DNA of 10,179 nucleotides from contig NZ_JBGFSK010000017.1 of the NCBI RefSeq assembly GCF_041365945.1, forward strand, positions 2,555 to 12,733. The letters run 5' to 3'. Position numbers and translations under genes: made by a program. A model generated the notes under the pieces. The model did no database searches, was not told where the DNA came from, and saw nothing but the letters and a program-made list of their open reading frames with translations. The DNA is from Janibacter sp. GXQ6167. Its GTDB lineage: Bacteria; Actinomycetota; Actinomycetes; Actinomycetales; Dermatophilaceae. Below are positions 1,662 to 9,919 of the stretch, one piece after another. How positions within the stretch are numbered: the first letter of the stretch is position 1; each line of letters starts with the position of its first letter.

Positions 1662-1714
1662 TGCACCTGGGCCTTGTCTGGGGGCTACCCAGATCGAGTC
1701 TGGAGGTGTACGGC

Positions 1715-2329
1715 GTGGCCGCGCGAGTCGTCGATGTGCGTTGTCCGGGATGCGGGAGCGCCTGGAGCACCAACCAGCAGTTCTGCCAGTACTGCGGTCG
1801 CCAGGTGCTGATCAGCTCGATGTCCGACCTGATCAGCCTGGAAGCGCGCGACCTCAAGAAGCACGTCCGTACCTACGAGGACGCGCTGGACGAGGGCGCC
1901 GATGATCCGAGCGTGCATGCGGCGCTCGGCATGTGCCTGCTCAAGCTGGGGCTGCGCGACAAGGCGCTGTCGCACTTCGAGGATGCGCTGCTCGATGACA
2001 TCGAGAACTCGGAACCGTACTTCTACGCCGCCGTCGCGTCGCTGGGTGGCAAGAAGCCGTTCCTGGTTCCGCTGGCTGGCATCCGCCGCGCGGAGGAGTA
2101 CCTCACGGCGGCGCTGCGGCTCGAGGAGCGCGGAATCTACGCCTACCTCTACGGGTACATCCGCTTCGACTACTACGAGCGCAAGTCGCTGAACGTCGAG
2201 CCGTCGTACCAGCACTACCTGCAGCAGGCAGTGCTTCGCGGTGTGACCGATCTGGACATCCAGACGCTGTTCGAGCTGCTGGAGATCGTCCCTTCGTCCG
2301 CTTCCATTCCGACCAGCGTTTCCGCCTGA
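1715..2329 (+). CDS. Zn-ribbon plus TPR-like repeat protein (hypothetical)
   Basis: Track ORF 1523-2329. I place the start at GTG 1715, which has GGAGG at 1702-1706 with an 8-nt spacer. In-frame alternatives are ATG 1661 and GTG 1736. The N-terminus carries CPGCGSAWSTNQQFCQYCG (CxxC-x11-CxxC zinc ribbon). HAALGMCLLKLGLRDKALSHFEDAL is a textbook TPR-like helix pair. The rest is helical and shows high-GC third-position codon use. Confidence 0.8.
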   Translation: MAARVVDVRCPGCGSAWSTNQQFCQYCGRQVLISSMSDLISLEARDLKKHVRTYEDALDEGADDPSVHAALGMCLLKLGLRDKALSHFEDALLDDIENSEPYFYAAVASLGGKKPFLVPLAGIRRAEEYLTAALRLEERGIYAYLYGYIRFDYYERKSLNVEPSYQHYLQQAVLRGVTDLDIQTLFELLEIVPSSASIPTSVSA

Positions 2330-2365
2330 CCCCTGTTCTAACCACCCGAGAGAGGTTCCTTCGCA

Positions 2366-3061
2366 ATGGCCATCAACTATGAGCGCAACAAGAAGTACTT
2401 CAAGCAGTCCAGCCCCAAGGCCGGCATCATCCTGATCGTGATCGGCCTGGTGCTGACGCTCGCCCTCCCCGAGGCGGGCAAGCTCGTCGGCATCCTGGGC
2501 ATCCTGGGTGGCGCGGCGCTGATCTACTTCCAGTTCGCGGGCAAGCCGAGCGACGCGGACATCGACTCGGACGCTGCTGCCGCCATCGCGGACGTGAAGA
2601 AGCGCGCGCTGGGCAAGCTCGGTCTGGACGAGGACGAGGTCAAGCTCATCGACCCGGTGATCGTTCACGGCTACTACTACAAGAACATCGCCTCGGGCGT
2701 GCAGGTCAAGCTCGGCAAGGACCGCGTCTTCCGTTCCTCGAACTACGAGGGCGTCGTGCTGTTCTTCAGCGAGCACCAGCTGCACGCGTTCAAGTTCCAG
2801 TTCTCTCTCGTCTCGCCGCAGGAGAGCCGCGAGCAGACCGACGAGTACTTCTACAAGGACGTCGTGTCGGTGGCGACGCAGTCGGAGACGTTCAAGATCA
2901 ACGACATCAAGGGCAACAGCCAGCAGGTCAACTTCGAGGAGTTCAAGCTCACCACCACGGGTGGCACCTCGATCACTTCGTCGATCCGCGACGAGGGCTC
3001 GGTCAGCCGCGTCATCTCCGGCGCGCGCAGCCTGATTCGCGAGAAGAAGATCGCGTCCTGA
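2366..3061 (+). CDS. Membrane protein: N-terminal 2-TM hairpin plus beta-rich soluble C-terminal domain (possibly PH-like); function unknown
   Basis: ATG 2366 has GAGAGAGG ~10 nt upstream. The TM segments are AGIILIVIGLVLTLALP and LVGILGILGGAALIYFQF (about 2420-2536). The C-domain has alternating strand-like segments (VIVHGYYY, VVLFFSEHQLHAFKFQFSL, EYFYKDVVSVAT, FKLTTTGGTSI). I recognise no catalytic motif. Confidence 0.85.
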   Translation: MAINYERNKKYFKQSSPKAGIILIVIGLVLTLALPEAGKLVGILGILGGAALIYFQFAGKPSDADIDSDAAAAIADVKKRALGKLGLDEDEVKLIDPVIVHGYYYKNIASGVQVKLGKDRVFRSSNYEGVVLFFSEHQLHAFKFQFSLVSPQESREQTDEYFYKDVVSVATQSETFKINDIKGNSQQVNFEEFKLTTTGGTSITSSIRDEGSVSRVISGARSLIREKKIAS

Positions 3062-3076
3062 CCCCGAGTTCTCTGC

Positions 3077-3115
3077 GTGCCGGGGCCGGTCGGCAGTCGC
3101 CACCGGCTCCGGCAC
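3077..3115 (+). promoter_or_regulatory. Intergenic GC-rich stem-loop (14-bp stem, 11-nt loop); possible partial terminator, attenuator or RNA-stability element
   Basis: GTGCCGGGGCCGGT (3077-3090) pairs with ACCGGCTCCGGCAC (3102-3115). There are 13 Watson-Crick pairs plus one G-U. It sits in the only sizeable intergenic gap of the cluster (3062-3156). No U-tract follows. Confidence 0.5.
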
Positions 3116-3156
3116 ACCAATTCCGCTGCCCGAGCGTGACGTGAGGAGTGTGCCGT

Positions 3157-5841
3157 ATGCCCGCAGGCGACGCGCCCCTGACGTTCACGCCTCTCGCGCA
3201 GGGTGAAGTAGCCGCTGCTACGGTGGTCGAGGTCGTCCGCATCCCGCACGTCTCCGTGCTGGGCGATGATCCGGCTGCCGAGCTGGTGCAGCAGTCCAAG
3301 CGGGACTTCGTCAGCCTGCTGTTCGAGGCGTACCAGTCGTACCGCGGACAGTACGAGGACGGCCCCGACCGAGCTAGCGACTGCGCTCTGGAACTGCTTT
3401 GGCAAGCACACCCCATTCAGGGCCAGCCGCACGCCGCCGACCTCACGCTATTCATCATCGTTCGCGCGATCGGCGCGAACCGGGACGACGCAGCGGCGGT
3501 TGTCAACGAGCTGCACGCTGTCGTGATCAGCGCGCTCACGCTCGGCGGCTTCGACTACGCAGATCGTCCTGCCTCCGCGATCGGCGCCCAGGCGGCGGAA
3601 CGGTCGGTTGCGCTCGTGAAGGAGGAGTGGATTGAGAACCTCGGCAACCAGATCCTGCCGAGCGCCTTCGCCTTCCACCGTATCCCCACGGGCAGCCGTG
3701 ATCTCTCACGTATCGCCAGCGCCCTAACCGAGGTGCCCGGTGCGTCCCTCTCGGTTCAGCTGATCCCGGCGACACTGGAGCCTGACGAGCGGACTGCTAT
3801 CGAGCAGCTGACGCTGGCGCTCACGACCCTCGCCAACGGTGTGACGGATCAGTCGATCGGTACCGTCAGCTTCACCGCGGCGAAGCGCCTCGCGGAGATG
3901 TACTCGTATCTGGAGGGGCACAAGGACTCGCCCCTGTTTCTGTTTAACGTCGTCGTCTCCGGGCCGAAGCTCGCCGTGCCGGTGATCGCCAACCGGGTGC
4001 TCGGTCACCTCTCCGCCGACGCCGAGGTAGGCGCGCTGGCGGCACGCTTCGTCGACGCCACAGCCCTGGTGCCACGAGGCGATGCGTCCTTCGTCGCTGC
4101 ACCGTGGCAGCTGAACGAGACGCTGCTCGACCAGACTCGTGATCCGTCGCTCTGGGCGGCGGGCCGCAATCCCGGTGAGGCATTCTACCGGCTGCCGTTC
4201 CTGCTGACGGCATTCGAGGCATCGGAGTTGTTCCGTCTGCCGATCGGCAGTGACACGGTCGGCGCCGGGCTGACGGTGAACACCACGACCCGGCACTCGC
4301 GCAACTACTCGGCCGGCGTGATCGGGAGCTCGAGCATCGAAGCCGGGCGACTCGCCGGGGCGGCCGAGGTCTCGATCGGGTTCGGGCATACCGACCTGAC
4401 CAAGCACGCTTTCGTCACGGGGACGCCCGGTTCGGGTAAGACGACGTTCACGGTCGGGCTGCTCGACCGGCTCTGGCACGAGCACGGCATCCCGTATCTG
4501 GTGATCGAGCCGGCGAAGAACGAGTACCGGGCGCTGATCGAGACGACGCCGGATCTGCAGGTGTTCACCCCGGGCAAGGATCATCTGTCTCCGCTTGTGC
4601 TGAACCCGTTCCTGCCGCCAGCGGGCGTGCGGGTGCAGAGCTACAAGTCGACCCTCAAGACGGCGTTCGCAGCCGCGGTCACGATGACGAGCCCCCTGGA
4701 CAAGATCTTCGAGGACGCCCTCTCAGCCACGTACTCGCGGTTTGGCTGGTTCGATGCCGACACAGCCGCCGATGGCCGTGAGGTGTTCTCTATCCGCGAC
4801 TTCCTGGCCGTTTTCCAGGAGACCTTCGTCCGCATCGGCTACACCGGAGACGCGGCCAACATCGGACGAGCAGGCCAGGTGCGCCTGCAGAGTCTGGTTG
4901 GCCTGTTCGACACCTACCCTTCGATCCCTGTCGAGGATCTGCTGTCGAAACCCACGGTAATCGAGCTGGCAGGGATCGAGAACAGCGACGACAAGGCCCT
5001 CTACATCGCGCTCATCCTGCTGCAGGTCCTCGCCTACGTGAACGCCAACGTCGCCGGCGACGGGAAACTCAAGCACGTCCTCCTGCTCGAAGAAGCCCAC
5101 GTCTTGCTCGACGCCGACGACGCCAGCGGACCGGGCGAAGCGGACCCCGCCGCGATTGCGAAGAAGCTGCTCAAACGCATGTTGGCCGAGATCCGCTCCT
5201 ACGGCGTCGGCATCATCGTGGCCGATCAGTCGCCACGCAAGGTCGGCTCGGACGTGGTGGCGCTCACGAACATCAAGCTCGGGTTCCGGCTGGTCGAGGC
5301 CGCAGACAAGGAGATCCTGGCCGAGAGCACCAACATGAGCGACGCGCAGCGCGAGCGGCTGGCGCGGCTCCGGCCGGGCGAGGCACTCCTGTTCTACGAC
5401 CGCCTCGAAGACCCCGAGGAGATCGCCACAGCCGACTGGCGCGCCCAGCGCGGCATCCCGACGTTCGTGTCCGATGAGGAGATCGCCCGAAAGGTCACTT
5501 ACTGGCAGCGGCACCCGGAACTGCTCATGCCATACCCGGAGAGCGCCTACATCGGGGGCTGGGACGCCTCGGTTGCCGGTGCGGGCAAGGAGATCGCCCG
5601 GCGCCTCTTCGCCGCGCACGTCCCGGCCGGCGATGTCGGCGTCAAGAGATTCGGCAGCATCTACCGGCAGCTCGATGCGTTCATCGCCGCCGAACTTCCC
5701 GCGTCGATCCCGAACACGCCGGCCCTGCGGCGAGCGGTCAAGGTCAACTTCCTGCGGCTGGTCAAGTACGAGTCGCAGATCCCACTGTCGGACGCCACGA
5801 TCCACAAGACCCTCGAAGCCGAGAGGAGCCGCACAGCATGA
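3157..5841 (+). CDS. HerA/FtsK-superfamily P-loop ATPase (DUF87/HerA-like C-terminal half) with a ~420-aa uncharacterised N-terminal region
   Basis: Track ORF 3148-5841. ATG 3157 is preferred, with GAGGAG at 3143-3148 and an 8-nt spacer. Walker A is GTPGSGKTT (4420-4446). YLVIEPAKNEYRAL follows it. Walker B is VLLLEEAH (5077-5100). IIVADQSPRKV, TNIKLGFRL and LRPGEALLF match the motif order of HerA-type hexameric ATPases. Confidence 0.93.
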   Translation: MPAGDAPLTFTPLAQGEVAAATVVEVVRIPHVSVLGDDPAAELVQQSKRDFVSLLFEAYQSYRGQYEDGPDRASDCALELLWQAHPIQGQPHAADLTLFIIVRAIGANRDDAAAVVNELHAVVISALTLGGFDYADRPASAIGAQAAERSVALVKEEWIENLGNQILPSAFAFHRIPTGSRDLSRIASALTEVPGASLSVQLIPATLEPDERTAIEQLTLALTTLANGVTDQSIGTVSFTAAKRLAEMYSYLEGHKDSPLFLFNVVVSGPKLAVPVIANRVLGHLSADAEVGALAARFVDATALVPRGDASFVAAPWQLNETLLDQTRDPSLWAAGRNPGEAFYRLPFLLTAFEASELFRLPIGSDTVGAGLTVNTTTRHSRNYSAGVIGSSSIEAGRLAGAAEVSIGFGHTDLTKHAFVTGTPGSGKTTFTVGLLDRLWHEHGIPYLVIEPAKNEYRALIETTPDLQVFTPGKDHLSPLVLNPFLPPAGVRVQSYKSTLKTAFAAAVTMTSPLDKIFEDALSATYSRFGWFDADTAADGREVFSIRDFLAVFQETFVRIGYTGDAANIGRAGQVRLQSLVGLFDTYPSIPVEDLLSKPTVIELAGIENSDDKALYIALILLQVLAYVNANVAGDGKLKHVLLLEEAHVLLDADDASGPGEADPAAIAKKLLKRMLAEIRSYGVGIIVADQSPRKVGSDVVALTNIKLGFRLVEAADKEILAESTNMSDAQRERLARLRPGEALLFYDRLEDPEEIATADWRAQRGIPTFVSDEEIARKVTYWQRHPELLMPYPESAYIGGWDASVAGAGKEIARRLFAAHVPAGDVGVKRFGSIYRQLDAFIAAELPASIPNTPALRRAVKVNFLRLVKYESQIPLSDATIHKTLEAERSRTA

Positions 5842-7019
5842 GCGACTACGGCACCGACATTGCAGACGCCCCCGTCGACACCGGCGCGGACGTCAGCGTG
5901 CCCGATACGACCGACTACGCCGACGAGCCGGTCGACCTGGCCGAGACCCCGCCCGAGTCGGAGGCGCCCGAGGCCGAGGAGGCGCCGCCCGCCGAAGACC
6001 TCTCGGAGCCCGCAGCAGATGAACTGAGCGGCACGGCGGAGACGCCGGCGGATGCGGAGGCACCCGTCGACCTGGGCGCGGCCCCGGAAACGGCCGACGC
6101 CGCCCCGGAACAGCCCCAGGACTGGCAGGAGGGCGAGGTCGTCGATCTCGGCGACGACGCTGCCCCCGACGCCCCGCAGGAGGACGAGACCGCCGAGGCG
6201 GACGATCCTGCCGGGCGCGACCTGGGTGATCCCGACCTGGCCGACAGCCCGGAGGCCGAGGCTCCCACGGATAGCGCCGGTGAGGATCTGACGACACCGA
6301 CGGACGACGAACCGGGCGCCGGTGATGCGCCGACTGACGCCGACGAGCAGGTACCTGAGGCGGCGGAGATTGAGCCCGAGGCCGCAAACGACGTGACGGA
6401 TGCCGAACCCGAGCCCAGGGTCGATGAGTTGACAGAGGCGGCCCGGGATGAGGCCCGCCCCGCCGACGAGCTGCGCGCCGAGTACTACGCCGACGTGGCT
6501 GATGTGCTGGCCGATGACACACCATCCGACGCCGAGCCGGTCGAGACGCAGGACACTCCCGGAGCAGACGCTGCCGAGGCGCCGGAGTCGAGCGATCACG
6601 CGGACGCCGCCAATGACCGCAGCAACTCCCCAGAGAACGAGGCACTGACCTCGGCGCTAGCCGAGAAAGGCCTGTCGCTGGAGCCGGTCGATCGCTTCGA
6701 CTACAGCGACAACCCGGTTCTCGGCTACCGCGAGTCCGCCCCGCCCGAAGACGTCGCGTACGCCGTCAACGCCTGGAACGACGAGATCGCGCCCGGCATC
6801 GCGGCCGGCGCGACCCGTGAGGACTTCGCCGCCTACGACCAGGAGCACGGCCTCGAAGGGCAGCGGCAGCTGGCCGGCGTCTACGACTACATGCTCGGCG
6901 GCGACGCGATCAAGAGCGGCGGAGAGCGCGAGGACGGATCGCTCGACGTCACCGGCGGCAGGCACCGCCTGGAACAGGCGCGTCTGAACGGCGTCCAGTA
7001 CCTGCCCGTGAGGAAGTAG
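5838..7019 (+). CDS. Hyper-acidic, low-complexity protein with a C-terminal ParB/Srx-like (GxHR) domain; function unknown
   Basis: ATG 5838 overlaps the ATPase stop (ATGA), and GAGGAG lies at 5823-5828. By hand count the first ~270 aa hold about 89 D/E, 6 R and 0 K, and are rich in P, A and T. The last ~115 aa are ordinary in composition. They end DGSLDVTGGRHRLEQARLNGVQYLPV, which resembles the ParB-N/sulfiredoxin-fold signature (x-G-x-H-R-x2-A-x4-G-x4-P-V). Confidence 0.85.
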   Translation: MSDYGTDIADAPVDTGADVSVPDTTDYADEPVDLAETPPESEAPEAEEAPPAEDLSEPAADELSGTAETPADAEAPVDLGAAPETADAAPEQPQDWQEGEVVDLGDDAAPDAPQEDETAEADDPAGRDLGDPDLADSPEAEAPTDSAGEDLTTPTDDEPGAGDAPTDADEQVPEAAEIEPEAANDVTDAEPEPRVDELTEAARDEARPADELRAEYYADVADVLADDTPSDAEPVETQDTPGADAAEAPESSDHADAANDRSNSPENEALTSALAEKGLSLEPVDRFDYSDNPVLGYRESAPPEDVAYAVNAWNDEIAPGIAAGATREDFAAYDQEHGLEGQRQLAGVYDYMLGGDAIKSGGEREDGSLDVTGGRHRLEQARLNGVQYLPVRK

Positions 7020-7056: not shown

Positions 7057-8256
7057 ATGAAGATCTACGACGTCATCAAGAACGAGACCGGCCTTCTCAA
7101 CGACGGCCTGGGCTCGAAGGCCGTGCTGGCGTGGAAGTTCACCGGTGAGGACTTCAACGACAACACGCAGCTGATCGTCTCCGAATCGGAGGAGGCGATC
7201 TTCATCCGCGACGGCATCGCCGTGGCGACCTTCGGCGGCGGCCGCTACACGCTCAACAGCAACAACCACCCCTTCATCGGCAGGCTGAGGAACCTGCTCT
7301 CCGGCGGGGTGAGCGCGTTCAGCTCGCGGGTGTACTTCGTCAACATCGATCACAAGTTGGAACTGCTGTGGGGCACCGACAGCCCGATCCAGCTCCGCGA
7401 CCCGGTCTGGAGCCTGCAGACCAGCGTGCAGGCGCGCGGCTCGTACTCGATCCAGGTGACGGACTCCAAGAAGTTCCTGATCAAACTGCTCGGCACCAAC
7501 ATCCAGGTTTTCGACGAGCAGCAGCTCGCCGGCTACTTCCGCAGCGCCTTCTCGCAGCACATCCGCGGACAGATCGCCCGCTACATCCGCGACTCCGGCC
7601 AGGAGATCCTGGAGATCACCTCGGACATCGAGCTGCTGGCCGAGCAGCTGCACCCGAGGCTCGCACCGCTGCTGGATGAGTACGGCGTGAAGCTCGTCAA
7701 CTTCTACATCGCCGCGATCGACATCCCCACCGACGACCCGAACCGCCAAGTGCTGGAGAACTCGATCGCACAGAAGCAGGCCAAGCTGCAGAGCGCGCAG
7801 GGCGATAAGGCCGTCATGGGGCTGCTCGGGGAAGACTGGGCCAGGCAGCAGTCGGCCACCATCCTCACCGAGCTCGCCAAGAACCCCGGCGCGGGTGGCG
7901 TGGCTTCCGCGGGTGCCGCAGCAGGCGTTGGCCTGGCTGCGGGCAGCGTCTTCGGGGAGATGGCGACGCAGATGTTCACGCGCCCCGTCCAGCCCGCAGG
8001 CGACCCGATGGCTGGCAATGTCGGGCGCAACCGCACATCGCGCTTCTCGCCCGCAGAGCCTGCCGCGCCGGCCGCCGCCGAGACGTGTCCGGGCTGCGGC
8101 GCGAGCGTGGCGGCGGGAGCGAAGTTCTGCCCGGAGTGCGGCAACCGTCTCGCACCTCAGCAGGTGCCCTGCTCGGGTTGCGGAACCGCAATCGCGAGCA
8201 CGGCCAAGTTCTGCCCCGAATGCGGAACGCCGAACAACCAGGGAGCATCCTCATGA
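7057..8256 (+). CDS. SPFH/band-7 family protein of the YdjI (COG4260-like) type with a C-terminal double zinc ribbon
   Basis: The N-terminal ~235 aa (MKIYDVIKNE...WKFTGEDFNDNTQLIVSESEEAIFIRDG...YFVNIDHKLELLWGT...RGSYSIQVTD...VKLVNFYIAAIDIP) match the YdjI / virion-core-protein-like SPFH family pattern. A Gly/Ala-rich segment GAGGVASAGAAAGVGLAAGSVFG follows (about 7885-7956). Then come two ribbons, CPGCG-x9-FCPECG and CSGCG-x9-FCPECG (8086-8232). Confidence 0.93.
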   Translation: MKIYDVIKNETGLLNDGLGSKAVLAWKFTGEDFNDNTQLIVSESEEAIFIRDGIAVATFGGGRYTLNSNNHPFIGRLRNLLSGGVSAFSSRVYFVNIDHKLELLWGTDSPIQLRDPVWSLQTSVQARGSYSIQVTDSKKFLIKLLGTNIQVFDEQQLAGYFRSAFSQHIRGQIARYIRDSGQEILEITSDIELLAEQLHPRLAPLLDEYGVKLVNFYIAAIDIPTDDPNRQVLENSIAQKQAKLQSAQGDKAVMGLLGEDWARQQSATILTELAKNPGAGGVASAGAAAGVGLAAGSVFGEMATQMFTRPVQPAGDPMAGNVGRNRTSRFSPAEPAAPAAAETCPGCGASVAAGAKFCPECGNRLAPQQVPCSGCGTAIASTAKFCPECGTPNNQGASS

Positions 8257-8930
8257 CCCGCACGATCCTGCGCGCCATCCTGTGGCTCGTCCCCATCGCC
8301 GTCTACGTCGCCATCTTCCTCATCCTCGAGGCCCCGCAGGGCGCGACGTTCTGGACGTCCGCACTGCTGCTGGCGTTCGCCTACGTCATGCTCGCCGTCA
8401 GTTTCGTCGCCGTGCCGCGCAGTCGGATAGCCGCGATCCTGGCCATGCCCCTGATCCTGGTGGCGAGCATCTACTTCACTGCCGAGCTCATCGCGGCCAG
8501 CATCTTCATCTACGTGCAGGACATTCCATACCCGTGGGTGATCATCACGCAGCTGATCCTGGCCGCGATCTTCCTCGTCGTGTTCCTCACCACCTTGTTG
8601 TCCAACGAGGCCATCGCCGCCCAGATCGAGACCCAGCACGCCGACGTCCTGGTGATCAAGAGCGCCGTCACCCGCATCACGGCCCTGGGACGTGTCGCCC
8701 ACGATCCGCGCCTGGCGAAGTCGCTGGACGGGCTGGCCGAGGAGTTCCGCTACAGCCCGACGATGCGCTCGAACCAGGTGCGCGAAGTCGACGCGCAGAT
8801 CGCCGTGCAGCTCGAGCGACTGGAGAGCCTCGTCCACATCCAAGCTTCGCAAGAGGATACCGTCGGCCAGATCGCGGCGATATCCGGGGCGCTCGCTTCA
8901 CGCAACGAGGCGATCAAGCTCCGCCAGTAG
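8253..8930 (+). CDS. Integral membrane protein (4 predicted TM helices) with a helical C-terminal domain; function unknown
   Basis: ATG 8253 overlaps the SPFH stop (ATGA), and GGGAG lies 7 nt upstream. There are four long hydrophobic segments (ILRAILWLVPIAVYVAIFLIL, FWTSALLLAFAYVMLAVSFVAV, IAAILAMPLILVASIYFTAELIAASIFIYV, WVIITQLILAAIFLVVFLTTLL). About 110 aa of amphipathic helix follow. The longer track ORF from 8085 overlaps the SPFH gene out of frame, so I reject it. Confidence 0.85.
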   Translation: MTRTILRAILWLVPIAVYVAIFLILEAPQGATFWTSALLLAFAYVMLAVSFVAVPRSRIAAILAMPLILVASIYFTAELIAASIFIYVQDIPYPWVIITQLILAAIFLVVFLTTLLSNEAIAAQIETQHADVLVIKSAVTRITALGRVAHDPRLAKSLDGLAEEFRYSPTMRSNQVREVDAQIAVQLERLESLVHIQASQEDTVGQIAAISGALASRNEAIKLRQ

Positions 8931-9376: not shown

Positions 9377-9919
9377 TCAAGGCCGGGGCGAACTCCCGAG
9401 CAGGGCGTGCAGCTGATGGCTGGCTGGTGAGACGGCGCGAATGCGGGTCTCGTGGAGGGCGGGGTCGTGCGTGCGCAGGTACATCGCCCAGAACGCCGCG
9501 TCGGCATACGTTGTGTGCAGATCTGACTGCGCCCGCCAGCCGCTCGAAGCGGTGCGCCGGTAGCCGACTTCGTAAGGGCCGCCATGCAGGAGTTCCTGCA
9601 CGAGTGATGCCGGGACGTCACCGACCGGGTAGGTGCTGCCGATATCGCCCACGAGGAGCACGTCGCCGTGCAACGCCGGCCGCTGCCTTGAAGTGGTGTC
9701 CCAGAACCAGCGCAGCGACGAGGCGCGCAGGTTCATCGGGAGCCCGTTTCGGCGGTCGTCGGCGTCGAGCCACATCGTGACACCTCGGCTCTCGATGTCG
9801 ATCGGGATCACCAGATCAGCGAGCTGCTGAATGTCTGCGAACCCTGCGACCTCCCGCGTTTCGAGTTGTTGCTCGATCTGCGCCGGGATGAGAACAGCCG
9901 TGACGGTCTCACCATTCAC
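9377..9919 (-). CDS. Hypothetical protein with an N-terminal DUF3846-like domain
   Basis: Track ORF with a GTG start at 9919. VTAVLIPAQIEQQLETREVAGFADIQQLADLVIPIDIESRGVTMWLDADDRRNGLPMNLRAS...GDVLLVGDIG follows the DUF3846 pattern as I recall it (ALLIP...V..LQ.LVGG.IE......LW.NEEG...GLP.N.RA....G..l..G). The C-terminal ~80 aa are unassigned. Confidence 0.6.
   Translation of the reverse strand: MNGETVTAVLIPAQIEQQLETREVAGFADIQQLADLVIPIDIESRGVTMWLDADDRRNGLPMNLRASSLRWFWDTTSRQRPALHGDVLLVGDIGSTYPVGDVPASLVQELLHGGPYEVGYRRTASSGWRAQSDLHTTYADAAFWAMYLRTHDPALHETRIRAVSPASHQLHALLGSSPRP

Follow-up and report, generated by a model that had tools for sequence, protein, structure and literature searches.

A VirB4-like ATPase paired with polyacidic-leader proteins in a widespread mobile cassette that may export polymorphic toxins

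Introduction

Relatives of FtsK and HerA pump DNA, a polyanion. In type IV secretion systems (T4SSs), VirB4 probably pulls pilin out of the membrane, and its N-terminal domain contacts VirB3 and VirB8 in the inner-membrane complex of R388. Type I secretion systems (T1SSs) work with an ABC transporter, a C-terminal signal and TolC; their RTX substrates are very acidic, unfolded in the cytosol and carry D-x-D/S-type motifs, and Ca2+ binding outside the cell could ratchet their export. In Bacillus subtilis, YdjG, YdjH and YdjI, which comprise a Zn-ribbon protein, a membrane protein and a Band_7_1 SPFH protein, recruit PspA. Polymorphic toxins, as described by Zhang et al. (2012, PMC3482391), combine a constant N-terminal targeting region with a variable C-terminal toxin and an immunity gene downstream, and Bell et al. 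(2024, PMC11090510) place 'EccE3-HerA' ATPases in extended type III-A CoCoNuT loci. Here, we analyzed a 10,179-nucleotide stretch of Janibacter sp. GXQ6167 (GCF_041365945.1; contig NZ_JBGFSK010000017.1, positions 2,555 to 12,733), referred to as the window throughout, and the large HerA/FtsK-type ATPase encoded in it.

This ATPase is the product of gene 3 of a six-gene operon on the plus strand and is the hallmark gene of a self-contained, widespread mobile cassette encoding, in order, a Zn-ribbon/TPR protein, a membrane protein (MemA), the ATPase, an acidic protein that we call the cargo, an SPFH protein and a second membrane protein (MemB). Our favored reading, held with confidence about halfway along the scale, is that the cassette is a VirB4-like motor exporting polymorphic toxins or effectors with polyacidic leaders. 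The cassette is apparently undescribed; the literature that we searched, outside which subscription-only papers lie, held no description of an ATPase–SPFH–acidic-toxin cassette or of polyacidic leaders.

Results

The ATPase gene (gene 3) runs on the plus strand from an ATG at position 3157, preceded by a GAGGAG ribosome-binding site 9 nt before it, to a stop codon ending at 5841, and encodes 894 amino acids (aa); the program-listed open reading frame (ORF) opens at a GTG at 3148, within the ribosome-binding site. With an E-value limit of 1e-5, a database search returned more than 1,596 homologues; almost all have a length of about 890 aa and cover 97–100% of the query. An alignment of 50 sequences showed a mean column identity of 66% and invariant positions in all three regions of the protein. 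Because of the number of homologues and the conservation over the full length, the ORF is not a chance product of high-GC DNA, and the initial annotation was correct in treating it as a real gene.

The central region (residues ~394–760; 4336..5436, +) was delimited by its motifs and by Pfam DUF87 as a RecA-like core of the DUF87/HerA-FtsK type. Walker A (GTPGSGKTT, residues 422–430, nt 4420–4446), Walker B (LLLEEAH, residues 642–648, nt 5080–5100), ADQSP (residues 689–693, nt 5221–5235) and GEALLF (nt 5377–5394), together with many basic residues, were invariant in the 50 homologues. Judged by these motifs, the ATPase appears to be catalytically intact and an active motor. The initial annotation had placed Walker A exactly, and its Walker B, put at 5077, lay one codon too early. 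DUF87 matched the window ATPase with an E-value of 1.3e-6 and all 50 family members (best E 2e-13), and FtsK_SpoIIIE matched 41 of the 50. The best PDB sequence matches were HerA chains (E 1e-8 using the family profile). PADLOC models matched the core (~390–760) with E-values from 9e-17 to 1e-6, namely mad8 (E 9e-17) and HerA models, while the top NCBIfam match was CedD (E 3e-20, below the model cut-off) and HerA_antiphage matched at 1.3e-9, far under its cut-off. The core is thus a P-loop pumping ATPase of the HerA-FtsK superfamily, as had been proposed from its motifs.

Searches with Pfam, NCBIfam, PADLOC, PHROGs and, against PDB sequences, phmmer and a profile hmmsearch gave nothing outside residues ~390–780. 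The earlier statement that the flanks carry no recognizable signature therefore holds at the level of sequence, and its second part, that they are folded, agrees with structure prediction. An AlphaFold2 model of the whole ATPase, built from the 50-sequence alignment without templates, had a mean pLDDT of 76.8 and was confident for the N-terminal 370 residues and for the C-terminal helices; residues 1–375 (residues 1–420 contain 15% Ala and 11% Leu), modeled separately, reached a pLDDT of 89.1 and a pTM of 0.90. When the full-length model was compared with the PDB using Foldseek, the first matches were full-length TrwK/VirB4 of R388 (E 5e-13 to 6e-10, 919–1,010 aligned columns), followed by the DndH C-domain, the Thermoanaerobacter VirB4 C-terminal domain and HerA chains. 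With residues 1–375 alone, 13 of 13 matches at E ≤ 1e-3 were TrwK chains, and the next match had an E-value of 0.01. On the basis of this Foldseek comparison of the predicted fold, we assign the N-terminal region (residues 1–375; 3157..4281, +) as an alpha/beta domain of the VirB4 type and not as a HerA HAS-barrel; no HAS-barrel, the mark of HerA proper, precedes the core in the predicted structure. As the initial annotation had suspected, this region is very probably a folded accessory domain that docks partners.

The VirB4 likeness raises the reading that the ATPase is a genuine VirB4 of a conjugative T4SS and the window a piece of a conjugative element. Besides the N-terminal domain and the overall build, a DUF3846 gene and remnants of an integrase and a transposase in the window speak for it, as does a relaxase near one Firmicutes locus (L004) that is not conserved elsewhere. 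Against it, identity to TrwK is 8–11%, and the VirB4-specific Pfam families CagE_TrbE_VirB, TraC_F_IV and AAA_10 matched 0 of the 50 family members at E ≤ 0.01. The sole NCBIfam VirB4 match was VirB4_plasma (E 0.007, 14 bits against a cut-off of 590). No profile signal links the ATPase to R388 TrwK, or MemA and MemB to TrwM, TrwG, TrwI or TrwJ. Pfam annotations revealed no VirB2/3/6/8/9/10/11, VirD4 or relaxase in the window or the conserved neighborhood, and the cassette of Modestobacter lies among metabolic genes in a genome without conjugative machinery. The initial annotation had named a VirB4 match of the N-terminal region, accompanied by other conjugation genes, as grounds for giving up its HerA-type assignment; the match exists in three dimensions only, without sequence signal, and the accompanying genes are absent from the window and the conserved neighborhood. 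We rejected this conjugative reading on gene context, with which it fits poorly, and regard it as highly improbable. Since both the sequence signatures and the gene neighborhood of a T4SS VirB4 are lacking, we class the ATPase, with its DUF87-type core, in the HerA-FtsK superfamily and call it VirB4-like, neither a T4SS VirB4 nor a HerA.

The C-terminal region (residues 761–894; 5437..5838, +) forms an all-helical domain of ~10 helices according to the AlphaFold2 secondary structure (pLDDT 76–90). Conserved positions in the alignment include Y782, W783, P792, Y793, R816, E846 and R867. Four cysteines, at residue 796, in an insertion after 799, at 802 and at 860, are kept in 40–48 of the 50 relatives, and this pattern suggests a metal or Fe-S site in those proteins. 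Three of these cysteines are missing from the actinobacterial branch, and in the window ATPase and its nearest relative Cys796 has been lost as well (S796, W802, A860).

The cargo gene (gene 4; 5838..7019, +; 393 aa) follows at once, its ATG overlapping the ATPase stop codon (ATGA), so that the two genes are translationally coupled. Its product consists of a signal-like start (MSDYGTD), a polyacidic leader free of K and R that extends from residue 1 to ~270, and a C-terminal module of ~125 aa; the first 150 aa contain 33% D+E and 1% K+R. The same composition was found for the gene directly after the ATPase in 41 loci, with pooled values of 38% D+E and 2.3% K+R over the first 150 aa and leader lengths of 60–1,200 aa. 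In 30 of these 41 loci, an aromatic residue occupied position 4 or 5 after M-x-D/E, as in MDEEY, MGDEY and MSDEF, or MSDYG in the window. The pairing of the ATPase with an acidic cargo holds down to 33–34% ATPase identity, as seen on a Priestia megaterium plasmid and in a Dactylosporangium locus (L078). The former (plasmid pN447-3.1, NZ_CP064271.1, 7221–13694; L085) encodes a 963-aa ATPase relative with 34% identity over residues 195–800, and, after it, a protein of 1,135 aa built from acidic 'TDTDTELQDD…SEKLDDLEQKETDQL' repeats; it is a cultured, plasmid-borne variant of the pair; no SPFH gene was annotated there from the ATPase to the 3' end of the viewed region (~8 kb).

Behind this constant type of N-terminal region, toxin domains are exchanged between loci, as in polymorphic toxins. 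Pfam identified C-terminal modules of Gln_amidase (four), WHH, Colicin-DNase and TNT (three each), ADPrib_exo_Tox and Endonuclea_NS_2, and the cargo C-termini comprise at least seven distinct toxin families including a HExxH zincin family; many modules are without annotation. Many Firmicutes loci have small ORFs overlapping or adjoining the stop codon of the cargo gene; these ORFs co-vary strictly with the cargo C-terminus, and no pair of similar small genes was found behind dissimilar C-termini. Such co-variation corresponds to the signature of toxin–immunity cassettes as defined for polymorphic toxin systems by Zhang et al. (2012, PMC3482391). The HExxH zincin-like module is recurrent and always precedes a conserved 98-aa protein. 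Because this pair (clusters c8 and c9) often lies beside a second toxin cargo, it may not be a toxin–immunity pair and may instead have an accessory role, such as that of a processing peptidase. Some cassettes (L051, L053, L009 and L056) carry two or three acidic-leader genes downstream of the ATPase.

The C-terminal module of the window cargo (…DVTGGRHRLEQARLNGVQYLPVRK) has the invariant pattern G...G-x-H-R...A...G...P and is 61–88% identical among actinobacterial relatives, while the leader drifts with insertions and deletions. A word-indexed homologue search with the cargo C-terminus was empty, and an exhaustive HMMER search recovered relatives, 239 at the level of 50% clusters, in which the module is always C-terminal. 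Among the best 150 of these relatives only eight have acidic N-termini; the others are mostly helical, a few matching WXG100/EspC families of type VII secretion systems (T7SSs). In 34 relatives scanned with Pfam, we obtained one weak match each to ParB_N, WXG100, WXG100_2 and EspC, and the module-family profile returned only helical-bundle noise from the N-termini when searched against PDB sequences. Since the module is always C-terminal and stands behind unrelated N-termini, it appears, from sequence comparison, to be a shuffled effector module. One 187-aa protein (P0133) resembles the ATPase N-terminus at its start (…GETVAAGVAAIVEIVRIPHVDVPG…) and carries the G-x-H-R module of the cargo at its end, as if a deletion had joined the 5' part of the ATPase gene to the 3' part of the cargo gene.

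We then examined the distribution of the cassette by scanning ATPase loci in one genome per species. This yielded 74 loci, most of them from samples of gut, rumen or termites, which belong to Bacillota, Bacteroidota, Verrucomicrobiota, Spirochaetota, Planctomycetota, Fibrobacterota and Actinomycetota. ATPase identity across them is typically 45–50%, and such a spread over phyla at this identity indicates horizontal spread of the cassette. The cassette was found with an 86%-identical ATPase in a metagenomic actinobacterium, with a 56%-identical one in Modestobacter lapidis, surrounded by metabolic genes, and with ATPases of 48–49% identity in Oscillospiraceae and Defluviitaleaceae. It sits on integrative elements beside integrases, and one locus carries a NACHT protein.

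Partners were counted by clustering the neighbors at 31 loci with sufficient flank. The SPFH protein was present at 29 of the 31, MemB at 26 or more, an acidic cargo at 24 or more, the TPR/MemA set or an alternative Zn-ribbon membrane protein (c6) at a minimum of 22–23, and a YidD-domain protein at nine; the cargo count is too low in high-GC loci, in which crude ORF calling fails. The c6 protein (358–476 aa) was considered as a fusion of the TPR protein and MemA; this idea was rejected because only the Zn-ribbon is in common (hhalign 96%, 45 columns).

This gene set also bears on whether the ATPase is a translocase or helicase of the HerA type that serves in DNA repair or uptake, with the acidic protein as a regulatory DNA mimic. 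HerA chains as best PDB sequence matches and CedD, a DNA-translocating ATPase, as top NCBIfam match would suit such a role, and a polyacidic protein free of K and R could mimic DNA. Yet NurA, Mre11/Rad50 or a nuclease partner is missing, there is no HAS-barrel, the C-termini of the acidic proteins are toxins of many kinds that have immunity-like partners, and it is membrane and SPFH proteins that constantly accompany the ATPase. This reading fits the gene context poorly; we rejected it on that ground and give it scarcely any weight.

The window holds all six cassette genes, with overlapping start and stop codons at the ATPase–cargo and SPFH–MemB junctions. Gene 1 (1715..2329, +) encodes a 204-aa Zn-ribbon and TPR protein, for which a GTG start was chosen by analogy to a 204-aa orthologue in locus L001. 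Pfam places the Zn-ribbon (DZR, Zn_ribbon_3) at residues 8–30 and TPR_2/TPR_19 at residues 51–106, and the NCBIfam family of SycD/LcrH type III secretion chaperones gives a weak, sub-threshold match (E 0.005). The protein is possibly a cargo adaptor or chaperone. With c6 counted in, at least 23 of the 31 loci have an orthologue (cluster c4) upstream of the ATPase. Gene 2 (2366..3061, +) encodes MemA, 231 aa, with an N-terminal hairpin of two transmembrane segments (hydropathy peaks at residues ~14–55) followed by a beta-rich soluble domain. MemA had no match in Pfam, NCBIfam or PADLOC and only a marginal one in PHROGs (phrog_29766, E 0.006), and its 43 orthologues (cluster c3) adjoin the ATPase. 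As hhalign against T4SS proteins gave no signal, we dropped the idea that MemA is a VirB3 homologue.

Gene 5 (7057..8256, +) encodes the SPFH protein, 399 aa, which has a Band_7_1 domain (Pfam E 1.3e-33), a C-terminal double Zn-ribbon (DZR/Zn_Ribbon_1, E 1e-10 to 1e-11) and no transmembrane segment. Gene 6 (8253..8930, +), whose start overlaps the SPFH stop, encodes MemB, 225 aa, which according to hydropathy has 4–5 transmembrane segments and a helical tail of ~100 aa. In BLAST against cluster c2, MemB gave 33 matches, with alignments beginning at residues 48–63 of the longer ORF, and it matched no family in Pfam, NCBIfam, PADLOC or PHROGs. The SPFH gene is translationally coupled to the MemB gene, and of all partners this pair accompanies the ATPase most constantly.

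Immediately upstream, the operon is bordered by the decayed edge of a mobile element, made up of a Zn-ribbon fragment of an ISL3-type transposase (538–960, −) and a tyrosine-integrase fragment comprising only the SAM-like and central domains (1204–1857, −). At the right border, outside the conserved cassette, a 180-aa protein (9377–9919, −) matches DUF3846 with 25.4 bits against a Pfam gathering cut-off of 27.5 bits; this family is common on plasmids and conjugative elements. A tRNA scan found no tRNA gene in the window, and a promoter and terminator scan of it was uninformative. The window has a G+C content of 62–73% and is rich in spurious long ORFs. One of 476 aa (1685–3115, −) lies opposite the TPR and MemA genes on the other strand and groups with nothing but the corresponding antisense ORFs of close relatives; for this reason it was set aside as a high-GC artefact and not a gene.

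Discussion

From the fold, the gene set and the cargo architecture we infer the following scheme of export. The motor would be anchored through its N-terminal domain to MemA and/or MemB, much as the VirB4 N-terminal domain contacts VirB3/VirB8. Cargo would be recognized by its M-x-D/E-D/E-F/Y start and the long, disordered, K/R-free polyacidic leader, which may be threaded as a polyanion in the manner of DNA pumped by FtsK/HerA relatives. ATP would then drive the cargo into or across a membrane channel formed by MemA and/or MemB within an assembly of the SPFH protein, which would scaffold the export site, and the Zn-ribbon/TPR protein may hold the cargo, as its weak match to the SycD/LcrH chaperone family hints. 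Once exported, the C-terminal modules would act as toxins or effectors against competitors, with cognate immunity genes behind them in many loci. Alternatively, the D-x-D/S-rich leader could serve as an RTX-like Ca2+ ratchet outside the cell. That all this amounts to a previously unrecognized protein-export pathway, in which a minimal VirB4-like motor on an SPFH/membrane platform, with no other type IV parts, recognizes the M-x-D/E-D/E-F/Y start and the DNA-like leader and delivers polymorphic toxins, is a more tentative proposition, to which we give somewhat less weight than to export as such. Such a pathway would have passed horizontally among gut members of the first six phyla named above and soil Actinomycetota.

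Several observations weigh against export. The case for it is computational throughout. The likeness to VirB4 is structural only, with an hhalign probability of 0.4% between the ATPase family profile and R388 TrwK, and profiles of MemA and MemB against the VirB3/5/6/8 proteins TrwM, TrwG, TrwI and TrwJ of R388 all remained below 1%. No recognizable channel or outer-membrane component occurs in the cassette, although it is found in both diderm and monoderm phyla. The adaptors are not universal, as the TPR protein and MemA are exchanged for c6 or unrelated genes in about one third of the loci. The small downstream ORFs have almost no family matches and, apart from DUF7675, none to an Imm family. 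In the window and its actinobacterial relatives, no immunity-like ORF follows the cargo, the SPFH gene beginning 38 nt on. These genomes share one C-terminal module, the toxicity of which is only putative; it may, as a lead only, be a ParB_N-like toxin module without a Pfam family, given a single weak match. Finally, variable toxic effectors are also typical of abortive-infection defense.

Such defense, or defense against mobile elements, is the main and serious rival to the export reading, although we consider it unlikely. Like HerA in Sir2-HerA or DUF4297-HerA, the ATPase would sense invading DNA or infection stress and then free or activate the adjacent toxic effector inside the cell, with the SPFH and membrane proteins as the trigger or a second effector. 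The variability of the effectors, the lack of an immunity gene behind the window cargo, the matches of the ATPase core to the PADLOC HerA and mad8 models and to NCBIfam HerA_antiphage, and the location on integrative elements with integrases, once with a NACHT protein, all accord with defense. Similarly built 'EccE3-HerA' ATPases occur in CoCoNuT defense loci (PMC11090510). The initial annotation had likewise thought of HerA-based defense complexes, and this setting found no support among the partners, none of which matches a PADLOC defense model (0 of 5 partner proteins; with PADLOC-DB v2, the six other scanned proteins of the window had no match at E ≤ 0.01). Defense is further opposed by the N-terminal domain, which is VirB4-like and not an effector-docking HAS-barrel, and by the toxin families with strictly co-varying small genes, the signature of exported toxin–immunity pairs. 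A K/R-free leader of 60–1,200 aa with a conserved start has no known precedent among defense effectors.

The constancy of the SPFH/MemB pair points to another possibility, namely that this pair and the ATPase insert, extract or display polyacidic proteins in envelope or membrane homeostasis, for example for cation binding or adhesion, and that the enzymatic C-termini act on the cell's own envelope. The pair resembles PspA-linked SPFH modules, and the Band_7_1 SPFH protein and the multi-transmembrane partner are the most constant neighbors. The YidD-domain protein belongs to a family of membrane insertion factors, many cargo C-termini have no toxin annotation, and the presumed dislocation of pilin by VirB4 would be a comparable activity. 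Nevertheless, DNases, an NADase (TNT), an ADP-ribosyltransferase and a deamidase are implausible as envelope housekeepers, and both the swapped cassettes with co-varying small genes and the patchy, horizontally transferred distribution point to conflict. Homeostasis fits the gene context poorly, and we hold it to be quite improbable.

If export by a VirB4-like motor is correct, a large conserved ATPase family (more than 1,500 proteins, 45–50% identical, in seven phyla) would gain a structural assignment, with a VirB4-like build and a DUF87 core. VirB4-type motors would then be active beyond type IV secretion, needing no more than an SPFH protein and two or three membrane proteins of small size, which would bear on the evolution of T4SSs and T7SSs because VirB4 and EccE have the same N-terminal fold. 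The polyacidic K/R-free leader would be a new targeting signal and would set apart a class of polymorphic toxins, so far undefined, in the communities of gut and rumen. From it, such toxins could be predicted from sequence, including those with unannotated C-terminal modules, and the leader and motor might serve together as an export tag. Some carriers are in culture, for example Ruminococcus albus AR67, Faecalicatena contorta ET55, Bengtsoniella intestinalis BP47G, Paludibacter sp. 221 and Modestobacter lapidis DSM 100206, which opens the hypothesis to direct testing.

Among described systems, the EccE3-HerA ATPases lie in McrBC-type CoCoNuT operons between VWA genes (Bell et al. 2024, PMC11090510). 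In the Pfam annotations obtained for neighbors of the window and the 74 related loci, there were no CoCoNuT, McrBC or VWA genes, nor were there any around the distant relatives in Dactylosporangium and Thermoanaerobaculia. The HerA proteins of Sir2-HerA (Nezha), DUF4297-HerA and archaeal HerA-NurA have the DUF87-type core in common with the ATPase and are clear Foldseek matches. They differ in having an effector-docking HAS-barrel of ~100 aa in place of the 375-aa VirB4-type domain, as well as in their effector families and partner sets; neither NurA, Sir2, DUF4297 nor another known HerA effector partner gave a Pfam or PADLOC match among the window neighbors.

Type VIIb secretion (EssC) with its LXG/WXG toxins follows a like logic, in which an FtsK/HerA-superfamily ATPase works with a few membrane proteins and with polymorphic toxins that join a constant N-terminal targeting region to a variable toxin end, but shares no parts with the cassette. 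EssC combines FHA domains with three ATPase domains in tandem, unlike the ATPase described here, and T7SS substrates are helical hairpins, whereas the cargo leaders are polyacidic and disordered. The cassette contains no WXG100, EsaA, EssA or EssB genes. A point in common is that the window cargo module is also found behind WXG100/EspC-like N-termini. RTX proteins are an analogy only, sharing with the cargo a very acidic character and D-x-D/S-type motifs; in contrast to a T1SS, the signal-like element of the cargo is N-terminal and the motor is VirB4-like. YdjG/YdjH/YdjI resemble the cassette in make-up, with a Band_7_1 SPFH protein free of transmembrane segments, a multi-transmembrane partner and a Zn-ribbon protein, while PspA is not part of the cassette and the ATPase and cargo are not part of the ydj operon. 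In contrast to VirB4/TrwK, the ATPase has no other T4SS gene alongside and is accompanied by an SPFH protein, by membrane proteins that are unrelated and by a polyacidic cargo, and it has an additional helical C-terminal domain of ~130 aa; what the two share, according to the predicted fold, is a VirB4-type N-terminal domain followed by the ATPase domain.

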